Below are positions 9,001 through 12,000 of a DNA stretch of 15,711 nt, in pieces. Origin of the DNA: a virus (taxonomy: Duplodnaviria > Heunggongvirae > Uroviricota > Caudoviricetes); IMG/VR virus record IMGVR_UViG_2700989509_000007. One strand, 5' to 3'. Made by a program: the position numbers. Position 1 is the stretch's first letter; each line of letters begins with the position of its first letter.

Positions 9001-12000
9001 AAGTTCAATATCCTGCTGGCAACTGGCGCAAGCTCTGCATCCACGAACAGCCAGGCGTCGCCGCTCATCTATCGGATCGCCACACTCGCAACAATGAGTA
9101 GCAGATGGGGCATTACAATCGGATTTGTATTTTTGCAGGGAGAAATTGCGCTGCAATTCTTCGATTTCAGCGGCGTTGTCGATGATATCTGCCATTTTCC
9201 TTTCCTTCAGGCATGAAAAAAGGAGCCGAAGCTCCTTTGGTTTTATAATTCGAATTGCCTTGCCCGCAGGCTTTTCAGCATTGGCATGGCCCGCTGGATA
9301 ACGGAACTTGACATGTCGAGACGTGTTACCTCCCTCAGTAGCGCGTCTCTGTTTTTCGTCACCGCATAGAAGGTTTCAAACGCAATGTCATACAGTTTAC
9401 TCGCGTATGATGAGTTAAGTCCCTTCAATATCGGGTACAGACGTTTGCAGATGTCCTGCGCATTCTCCATCTGTACCTGCATATAGCAAAGGAGGATGAT
9501 TTCTTCGTCTGTGAATTGCTGCGCTGGTTGCATGCTGCGAAGTTTTTTCTCGCACTCGATGAAGTATCGGCGTATCTGACGGCCTTTTTCGTTACGTTCA
9601 ACCATCGCCAGTTCTTTGGCTGTGTCGAGAGTGAGATGGTAGTCTTTTGCAGGACGACCTCTGCCTATTTTTTCCCGAACTTGGGAAATAATCATAAAGT
9701 CTTGATTTTCAACGAAACCATATTCAGCAATTCGTTCGACAATCCACGAAGCAAATCGCTTACCCACATCGAGGAAAGTGTGTAAATCACGGGCATTAAC
9801 GAGAAGAGTGGTTTCGTTGGATATAGTGCCGTTGAATACGGGGATGAGTTGACTGGTCATGATGACCTCCTTGTAAGTTTAGTTAGCTCAACCAGTTAGT
9901 AGCTGGTTGGTCGGGTGTCAACTGAGCCTTACAAGAAGCTCTGGGCATATTCCCCTTACGGGTATTGTATTACGCCTCTCCACCCGACCTTTGTACGGAT
10001 GTGACTATGCCGCATTACGGGCATAAAAAAGCCGCAAAGCTATCGGGTGCGGATGACCGCTTGTAAGTTCAGTGCGGTCAGTATGCGATAGCTCTGGCGG
10101 ATTTGTCAAACTATGAGAATATTGATGAACGAGTGACGGTATATACCCCACCCAGACAATTAACGTAAATTCACATCGTAAACTTGCGTTAATTGTCTGA
10201 AATATCAAGTTAAATCCCCTTAAATCTTTGGGGCACTATTGGGGCAAAATGTGGTTGTTTGGGGCATATTTGGGGCAAAAAAGAACGTATAAAGAACGGT
10301 GTAAAATCGATTTCTTCATGGTTAAAATGAGGTCTAACATATTGAAAAGTATATGCTCTTGGACGATCTTCGGTAATTCTGTGTTTTTAATGCTTCATGG
10401 AATGGACATGGTAGTAGGTTGCTCATGAATGCACTCCCTTGCGAAGTTGGTCTGCACAATGCAGCAGGGTGTCCGTCGCATATTTAAGCCTCACTAGCTC
10501 ACCATCATCCATTCCCGCGAGATTCGCGTGTTTAACGAACGCCGAGCAAAGGTCATTAAACGCCTGCGCCCGTACTTCAGCCAGAAAAGCATCGGTGGCT
10601 GGCGTTTCCCGTGAACGGTAAGACCAAACAATGTCGTCTGTTTCACTGGGTTCTTCATGAGAGCAATTTGGGCAGACAGCAGTACAACCAGCATGATCTT
10701 CTATGAGCATCTTCAGCCACGAGTTCTCCTCCGCCAGCGCTGAAAACTTCTCGTGTGCCAACTTAACAGCCGAATCAGCCTGCTTAATTGACTCAATCGC
10801 TTTCTGCTGGTCTTCGGACAGAGCCGAAATCTTGGCCTCCGCTTCAGCAAATTTACGCACAAGATATTCAGCATTTGTTTCGTTAACCTTTAAATCACAT
10901 GGGATGCATTTACCTTTCAGAAATCCATCCATCTCAATTAGTGTCATTTGTTTCATTTCTTCCCACTCCGCCACATCGCATTCAGATATTTGTTATCATT
11001 AACAGAGCAGAAACTCTTTCGCTTAAGCAATTCCTCTCTCGATGGCATTGGCTTTACGCGTTGGCGAATAATCATTTCTGCCGGAAGAATGCCGGGATTG
11101 TATGCAAGTCCTCTCATGGTAAATTCCTCAGTTATTACTGATAGCGCCATAGCGTGAGCGGTAATTACGCAGGCGCGGGTCGATATATTCAGGGAAGTGG
11201 GTATATGTGGATTTGCGGAATGGTCGGATTGATGTTTCGTTTATTCGGTCTTTTTCCTGTTTTTCTGCGAGTTGTATATCGCGTCGGTACTTCCGTTCTT
11301 CTTTTGTTTCTGGTGGCAGAGCAAGAAACGCGTCGAGATTATTCTTGATATTTTCCAGCACCTCCGATATGGAATTGCCGGAACAGCGGCGCGGGTCGTC
11401 CGCACCATATAGAGGCGCTGGCATGGTTTTCTCCTGATTAAATTGCGTGAATAGCGTGACGAGGGAAGGGGAGAGTTACTGGTGCAAAGGGTATATCGTC
11501 GTAAAAATCCATCGGAGGTTCGTTGTGTTGTGCAGGTGATGATTGCTGCTGTGGCTTCTGTGATTGCCTGCTGGCTGCTTGTTGTTTGCTGTCGCCAATT
11601 CCGCCAAGCATTTGCATCACGCCATTAATTCCGACATGAACCTCGGTTGTGTAACGGTCTTGCCCTGACTGGTCTTTCCACTTTCTGGTTCTCAGCATTC
11701 CCTCGAAATAAATCTGATCACCTTTTTTCACATACTGCCCCACAACCTCAGCCAGTTTCCCGGATACAGCAACACGATGCCATTCAGTCAATTCCTTTTG
11801 CTCGCCAGTATTTTTATCTCGCCATTGTTCTGACGTGGCTATTGTCAGGTTAGCGAACGCTGTACCTGATGGTGAGTATCGAACTTCCGGGTCTTGTCCT
11901 ACCCGACCAAGGATAATCACCTTATTTACGCCTCTGCTTGCCATTTATGCCGCCTGTTTTAGTTCGTTAACTCTGATGTTCATTACCTGAACGCATTTAG

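Follow-up and report, generated by a model that had tools for sequence, protein, structure and literature searches.

Abc2, the anti-RecBCD protein 2 of phage P22, binds RecC and converts the host RecBCD enzyme into a resection enzyme for the phage annealing protein (Murphy 2000, as cited in PMC5928155), and both its mechanism and the structure of its complex with RecBCD have been described (PMC9836394). The RecBCD–Abc2(–PpiB) complex was obtained from Abc2 alone expressed with RecBCD (PMC9836394). The 15 Abc2 residues touching RecC have been tabulated from the cryo-electron microscopy structure (PMC9836394, supplement), and Pro68 of P22 Abc2 occupies the active site of the host protein PpiB (PMC9836394). 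The recombination (Rec) module of the HK75 type combines an anti-RecBCD protein with a single-stranded DNA-binding protein (SSB) and an annealing protein, without a nuclease, and is found in 27 of the 325 phages of a panel (PMC12315714, Genome Res 2025). Here we analyze a stretch of 15,711 nt from a Caudoviricetes virus record (IMGVR_UViG_2700989509_000007; hereafter the window), and in particular a chain of three small genes on its minus strand, encoding proteins of 98 (gene 1), 54 (gene 2), and 177 amino acids (gene 3), which follows the gene for a Rad52-family annealing protein and ssb.

Based on the data presented below, we propose, with a probability of roughly 85%, that this chain forms the distal end of the recombination region that a lambdoid E. 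coli prophage of the HK75 type carries in its early-left (PL) operon, and that the tight junctions of the chain reflect PL operon compaction and polar translation as opposed to a three-subunit complex. A preliminary description of this DNA had found no recognizable family for any of the three proteins; this no longer holds, as gene 1 corresponds to Abc2, gene 2 to DUF2737, and gene 3 to the Ea22/EaE-like proteins (Pfam, PHROGs, PDB). The arrangement abc2–DUF2737–Ea22/EaE-like is already known from P22 and HK75.

Results

Family assignment of the three proteins

On the basis of its sequence, gene 1 is a member of the Abc2 family. The encoded protein scores 149.2 bits against PF11043 (cutoff 25), with residues 1-98 covering profile positions 1-97 of 97, and matches phrog_656, labeled 'abc2 anti-RecBCD' (E 5e-49). 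Chain A of PDB 8B1T/8B1U, which is P22 Abc2, aligns with it end to end with a single 1-residue gap (E 1.4e-40). Its identity to P22 Abc2 is 70.4% by tblastn, with a ratio of nonsynonymous to synonymous substitution rates (dN/dS) of ~0.29, and the gene occupies the place typical of the family, in the early-left operon after the annealing protein and SSB. The RecC-contact residues are identical to those of P22 Abc2 at 10 of 15 positions, including A3, R13, C14, S15, G16, L36, E39, K41, and R47. The contact changes K44R and H48R retain a basic residue, and the non-identical positions Y30L, I33F, M34L, and E45K include three (I33, M34, and E45) whose contact with RecC is made through backbone atoms. 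The PpiB-binding proline is also retained (IRP68FRK).

Gene 2 encodes a member of DUF2737, a family that includes P22 orf56 and HK97 gp38. It scores 100.7 bits against PF10930 (cutoff 25), with residues 1-52 on profile positions 1-52 of 53, matches phrog_1117 (E 1.2e-37), and is 72% identical to P22 orf56. With a dN/dS of ~0.14 relative to orf56, and an excess of synonymous codon changes across 73 unique sequences, the 54-residue open reading frame (ORF) is evidently a genuine coding gene under purifying selection. A profile search with the family alignment against 1.84 billion representative proteins returned 98 small relatives only and no informative larger domain context, and a sequence search of the PDB found no relative. 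The AlphaFold2 model shows three short helices with a predicted local distance difference test score (pLDDT) of 68; so short a protein, with so uncertain a model, does not lend itself to a fold search.

Gene 3 has no family match in Pfam or NCBIfam but matches phrog_614 (E 1.1e-54) and phrog_368 (E 1.5e-25). The E. coli hypothetical protein UN93_07175 has the same sequence (100% identity), and an NCBI protein named 'ead/Ea22-like' is 99% identical. Only its C-terminal 108 residues align with P22 EaE, at 33% identity with 29% gaps (E 1e-8). In an alignment of 40 relatives, the N-terminal 80 and the C-terminal 60 residues are conserved and flank a hypervariable central cassette (residues ~81-117; window 10606-10716, minus strand), which varies in both length and sequence. 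The cassette present in this window bears a CxxxCxxC motif. The AlphaFold2 model built from the same 40-sequence alignment contains a helix spanning residues 26-94 and a C-terminal helical hairpin (pLDDT 64.5; predicted template modeling score, pTM, 0.33); from this poor model Foldseek returned nothing below E = 1 in the PDB and no fold could be assigned, and a PDB sequence search gave no match. The protein shares phrog_368 with the PF13935 (Ead/Ea22) protein encoded elsewhere in the window; gene 3 gives no match to PF13935 at E up to 1 and no profile similarity to that protein (hhalign probability 0.5%). Gene 3 probably encodes an interchangeable, non-essential 'ea' coiled-coil protein.

The profile hidden Markov model searches proposed in the preliminary description thus yielded family matches for all three proteins, which are not unknown. 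The structure-based searches, also proposed there, succeeded for gene 1 (PDB 8B1T), and gave nothing for gene 3. No nuclease family was matched by any of the three in Pfam, PHROGs, or NCBIfam, and none matched the defense-system models of PADLOC. NCBIfam as a whole yielded no meaningful match for the three proteins.

Layout of the chain

The three ORFs and their two junctions are exactly as first described when read on the minus strand (Table 1). The span originally given for them, 10953-11424, contains the first two genes and the ATGA overlap; the 177-residue gene itself runs to 10423. The stop codon of the annealing-protein gene abuts the ssb start codon (TAAATG), and the TAA stop of ssb is followed by 13 nt carrying an AGGAG Shine-Dalgarno (SD) sequence and then by the abc2 ATG at 11424. 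The abc2 stop codon, TGA at 11130-11128, overlaps the SD GAGGA (11129-11125), from which a 7-nt spacer leads to the DUF2737 ATG at 11117, leaving a gap of 10 nt between the two genes. The DUF2737 stop codon (10955-10953) lies inside the ATGA (10956-10953) that opens the 177-residue ORF. Three ORFs do follow ssb directly, as was claimed, but the chain does not end with them: a further ATGA at 10426-10423 carries it past gene 3 into a truncated gene of the Lar family. Compared with the intact Lar of a related E. coli prophage locus (L002), only codons 1-9 (MSNLLPCPF) are intact, with a breakpoint near 10400. The Lar homology ends at about this position, where a cassette containing Ant and sRNA-Xcc1 starts. 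Across the span 10953-11424, plus-strand ORFs matched no phage protein family, and an Rfam search gave no match inside it.

Table 1. Coordinates of the chain, its junctions, and its flanking genes in the window
Feature	Position	Strand	Basis or role
Rad52-family single-strand annealing protein	11945..12652	-	upstream partner of module
ssb, phage-encoded SSB	11438..11944	-	PF00436, phrog_44
Gene 1, abc2, 98 aa	11128..11424	-	PF11043, phrog_656, PDB 8B1T
abc2/DUF2737 junction	11118..11130	-	sequence reading
Gene 2, DUF2737 protein, 54 aa	10953..11117	-	PF10930, phrog_1117
ATGA start/stop overlap, DUF2737/177-aa gene	10953..10956	-	sequence reading
Gene 3, mosaic coiled-coil Ea22/EaE-like accessory protein, 177 aa	10423..10956	-	phrog_614, phrog_368
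Lar-family restriction-alleviation gene remnant	10334..10426	-	translations, DNA alignment with intact Lar of L002

Linkage between abc2 and the DUF2737 gene

Gene order was compared in the best 60-80 loci per query. DUF2737 lies downstream of abc2 in all 80 abc2-seeded IMG/VR loci, and the 10-nt gap between them, with the SD embedded in the stop codon, is present in 72. The corresponding TGAGGA-N7-ATG junction occurs in most of 125 distinct related contexts, nearly all of which have an ATGA or GTGA after DUF2737. Such constancy is an argument for a two-part anti-RecBCD module, in which DUF2737 would be an accessory of Abc2 and a functional stand-in for the poorly understood Abc1 or Arf of P22, and might tune the hijacking of RecBCD or pass resected DNA on to the annealing protein. 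The same order is common to P22, HK75, and the Salmonella phage S137; in the phage collection, full-length DUF2737 records (223) are close in number to Abc2 records (225); and recombination in P22 requires additional uncharacterized factors (PMC9836394). In a broader form, DUF2737 would be an overlooked member of the recombination and host-takeover module, a small early protein whose target could be RecBCD itself, RecBCD bound by Abc2, or some other factor of host repair or defense. Such a role would explain its invariant place after abc2 in the sampled lambdoid loci, and a related version reduced to its motif would then serve virulent Jersey-like phages.

Some of these points, together with others, weigh against our own proposal. 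Beyond the 80 of 80 loci, the most divergent Abc2 (37% identity), that of the Flyfo siphovirus Tbat2_3, is followed two genes later by a weakly DUF2737-like ORF, and the long-term linkage of abc2 and DUF2737 could reflect a functional tie. The sampled loci are close relatives from Escherichia and Salmonella, which makes these counts phylogenetically non-independent. In gene 1, 5 of the 15 RecC-contact positions are changed, and Abc2 activity in this prophage is deduced from an identity of 70%. In the literature, no experiment was found on orf56 or DUF2737, which one paper names in a gene list, nor on this Ea22-like protein.

Nevertheless, both forms of a DUF2737 function linked to Abc2 appear unlikely. 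Abc2 alone binds and modifies RecBCD (PMC9836394, PMC5928155), and DUF2737 is also found where Abc2 is not: 6 of 79 DUF2737-seeded loci carry a RecT-type module without abc2, and tblastn against the phage collection detects DUF2737 in 654 records versus 225 for Abc2. Many matches in virulent siphoviruses (Jersey-like and K1-type) comprise the C-terminal motif of DUF2737 only. In one Jerseyvirus that was checked, a 51-residue ORF scoring 41.5 bits on PF10930 sits among clustered small early genes, and recombination genes are absent from its neighborhood. Furthermore, the two proteins do not covary. Their divergences show no correlation (r = 0.07); an Abc2 identity of 80% or lower goes with a DUF2737 identity of 95% or higher in 1184 pairs, and one DUF2737 type stands beside at least five Abc2 sequence types. 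A DUF5405 gene also intervenes between abc2 and DUF2737 in 8 of the 80 loci. Our proposal is instead that DUF2737 is most likely a small host-directed early protein acting on its own.

Where DUF5405 intervenes, it re-uses the TGAGGA junction (e.g., L009 451-774), and the order in Tbat2_3 (L163 2818-3114 and ~3092-3250) is abc2, DUF5405, and then an unannotated ORF, the weakly DUF2737-like one. Apparent fusions of Abc2 with DUF2737 (P0094-P0102) were rejected as Rosetta-stone evidence: they are frameshift read-throughs in which the +1 frame replaces the Abc2 C-terminus. In-frame fusions of DUF2737 with the downstream EaE-like gene (phage S137, L164 2805-3350; P0209) were likewise set aside, given an apparent frameshift near the DUF2737 C-terminus. 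The frameshift in S137 and P0209 corresponds to a 1-nt indel deduced from the protein sequences, and may represent a real fusion or a sequencing error.

Translational coupling and the three-gene chain

The tight junctions of the chain had been taken to imply fixed stoichiometry and a joint function. On this explanation, translational coupling would fix the ratios of three proteins that form a complex serving the Rad52-like recombinase, for example as nuclease or loader. The stop-overlapping SD and the ATGA overlap are indeed real and conserved, and the genes come directly after the annealing protein and SSB. However, the coupling is not distinctive, because equally tight junctions link most genes of the operon whatever their function: 11 of the 13 junctions from c3 to eaG in P22, and 8 of 14 in an E. 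coli locus (L001), overlap or are separated by at most 10 nt. Like junctions join unrelated genes throughout the operon, and the ATGA that ends gene 3 carries the chain on into the Lar restriction-alleviation gene. Gene 3 is moreover variable. Across the 125 contexts, the gene that comes next after DUF2737 forms 26 clusters; in 27 contexts it is unrelated to gene 3, and it is mosaic in most others, many of which share only the N-terminal part. The operon-wide tight junctions, the variability of gene 3, and the occurrence of DUF2737 without abc2 thus argue against a three-protein unit, as do the uncorrelated divergence of Abc2 and DUF2737 and the published RecBCD–Abc2 complexes, which form with Abc2 alone (PMC9836394); no nuclease family was matched by any of the proteins. 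We consider such a complex very unlikely; neither it nor a fixed stoichiometry and joint function is supported by the present data.

Hardly credible is the idea that the 54-residue ORF is non-functional and is retained as a 'linker' or boundary for recombination between mosaic modules or as a ramp for translating the downstream gene: although the segment lies at a mosaic boundary and, together with the first ~35 codons of the next gene, is far more conserved than its flanks, the low dN/dS relative to P22, the synonymous excess, membership in a Pfam family, a well-spaced SD of its own, and a Jerseyvirus member that keeps the protein motif only (TREELLKRNSFP...NKYLN.MW) in a different DNA context all speak for a protein.

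Module type and gene neighborhood

Transcription in the window runs from right to left. Upstream of the chain are genes for an N-like antiterminator, a gp17-like superinfection exclusion protein, cIII, Kil, and small 'recombinase' ORFs; downstream are Ant, TraR, DUF4752, an Ead/Ea22 protein, and an integrase. The annealing protein matches PF04098 (E 1.8e-25) and the Erf-like phrog_1097, and is 99% identical to HK75 gp32; the SSB matches PF00436 (E 1.6e-36) and phrog_44.

The C-terminal 79 residues of the annealing protein (11945-12181, minus strand) share 63% identity with the C-terminal end of P22 Erf, and the N-terminal annealing domains of the two proteins do not align. The shared tail looks like a partner-interaction module mounted on different annealing cores.

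In many related E. coli prophages, ssb and abc2 are separated by a gene for a DnaQ-like 3'-5' exonuclease (L002 3566-4114). This gene is absent from the window, where a 13-nt spacer only (11425-11437) separates ssb from abc2. A mosaic breakpoint between ssb and abc2 is suggested, because the annealing protein is 99% identical to its HK75 counterpart versus only 73.5% for Abc2.

Further upstream, a 56-residue ORF at 12740-12910 (minus strand) is 98% identical to HK75 gp33, which is reported in a 2026 preprint to be sufficient to trigger the OLD abortive-infection nuclease and is proposed there to be a new RecBCD manipulator. It overlaps the ORF at 12661-12831 (phrog_1723) by 92 nt, and both match PHROGs labeled 'recombinase'. 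An insertion sequence (IS) transposase ORF (14873-15697, minus strand; phrog_688) lies directly upstream of the N-like antiterminator gene and probably disrupts the prophage immunity and PL region. At the other end of the window, a tRNA gene (4304-4375, minus strand) is located between tyrosine-integrase genes of opposite orientation (2973-4175, minus strand, and 4496-5740, plus strand), which suggests that two integrated elements abut one tRNA site.

The unannotated gap at 9861-10422 contains a full-length match to sRNA-Xcc1 (RF02221; 9901-9989, minus strand; 71 bits versus a gathering score of 53), located ~40 nt upstream of an AntA/P22_AR_C antirepressor-like gene (9860..9243). Upstream of the match are a sigma-70-like promoter (10109..10080, minus strand), a palindrome with 22-nt arms (10153-10199), and four TGGGGCA repeats (10227-10280). 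The sRNA-Xcc1 region is present in 387 of 5426 complete E. coli genomes, and is unannotated in 15 of 15 records among the matches listed. Published accounts locate sRNA-Xcc1 ahead of symE in integron cassettes of Xanthomonas and ahead of an ORF6N gene in APSE phages; because of these placements, it may serve toxic DNA-binding proteins as a mobile 5' leader. A 66-residue plus-strand ORF in the same gap (10228-10428) covers positions 1-55 of the 91-position profile phrog_24266 and terminates at the Lar breakpoint; it may represent a cassette gene that has been truncated.

Discussion

The proposed mechanism follows the published work on P22, whose Abc2 is the only one known to bind RecC, block the Chi response, and support recombination by the phage annealing protein independently of Chi. 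The Abc2 of the window would likewise bind host RecC at its Chi-recognition domains while host PpiB engages Pro68, and would block the response to Chi and raise cutting of the 5' strand, so that RecBCD becomes an enzyme of 5'-strand resection and leaves 3' tails for the phage annealing protein and SSB to use. A module without an exonuclease of its own would, in this manner, borrow host RecBCD through Abc2. This would account for the missing exonuclease. The earlier suggestion that one of the three genes might supply this function is correct insofar as Abc2 is predicted to recruit the host enzyme, and incorrect insofar as none of the three is itself a nuclease.

In itself, the finding is a routine correction of annotation: the prophage carries a standard HK75-type recombination module. 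RecBCD manipulators of the Abc2 type shape Chi avoidance in phage genomes (PMC12315714) and are candidate tools for recombineering, and defense systems such as OLD and Gabija sense tampering with RecBCD. DUF2737, a conserved 54-residue protein that follows abc2 in the sampled temperate phages, may have a host-takeover role of its own.

Comparison with known systems

Gene 3 resembles the Ead/Ea22 (PF13935) proteins in being a coiled-coil, mosaic protein of a non-essential region with phrog_368 in common, and differs from them in lacking a PF13935 match of its own. Abc2 invites comparison with lambda Gam, also a small early protein encoded at the same operon position, which neutralizes RecBCD for a phage annealing system (PMC12315714, PMC5928155). 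The two are non-homologous, however: Gam occupies the site where DNA enters and inhibits every activity of RecBCD, whereas Abc2 binds the RecC surface and re-programs the enzyme without silencing it (PMC9836394, PMC12315714). Lambda (Exo, Beta) also differs in carrying its own exonuclease.

P22 (BK000583) shares with the window the abc2–orf56–eaE order, the 10-nt gap between abc2 and orf56, and the overlapping orf56/eaE junction. Abc2 and DUF2737 are 70% and 72% identical, respectively, and the C-terminal part of gene 3 aligns with EaE. In contrast, P22 has Erf and Abc1 upstream where the window has a Rad52-family protein and SSB, the N-terminal and middle parts of gene 3 are unlike EaE, and the downstream genes also differ.

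Gene order and junctions are identical to those of HK75, which reads gp33–Erf-like protein–gp31 SSB–Abc2–10-nt gap–gp29 DUF2737–ATGA–gp28 (160 aa), with annealing proteins 99% and gp33 proteins 98% identical to those of the window. The window departs from HK75 in its Abc2, only 73.5% identical, in gene 3, a 42%-identical mosaic relative of gp28, and in the Ant cassette that truncates Lar and breaks the chain after gene 3. Both nevertheless belong to the same functional type, in which an anti-RecBCD protein, an SSB, and an annealing protein work without a nuclease (PMC12315714).

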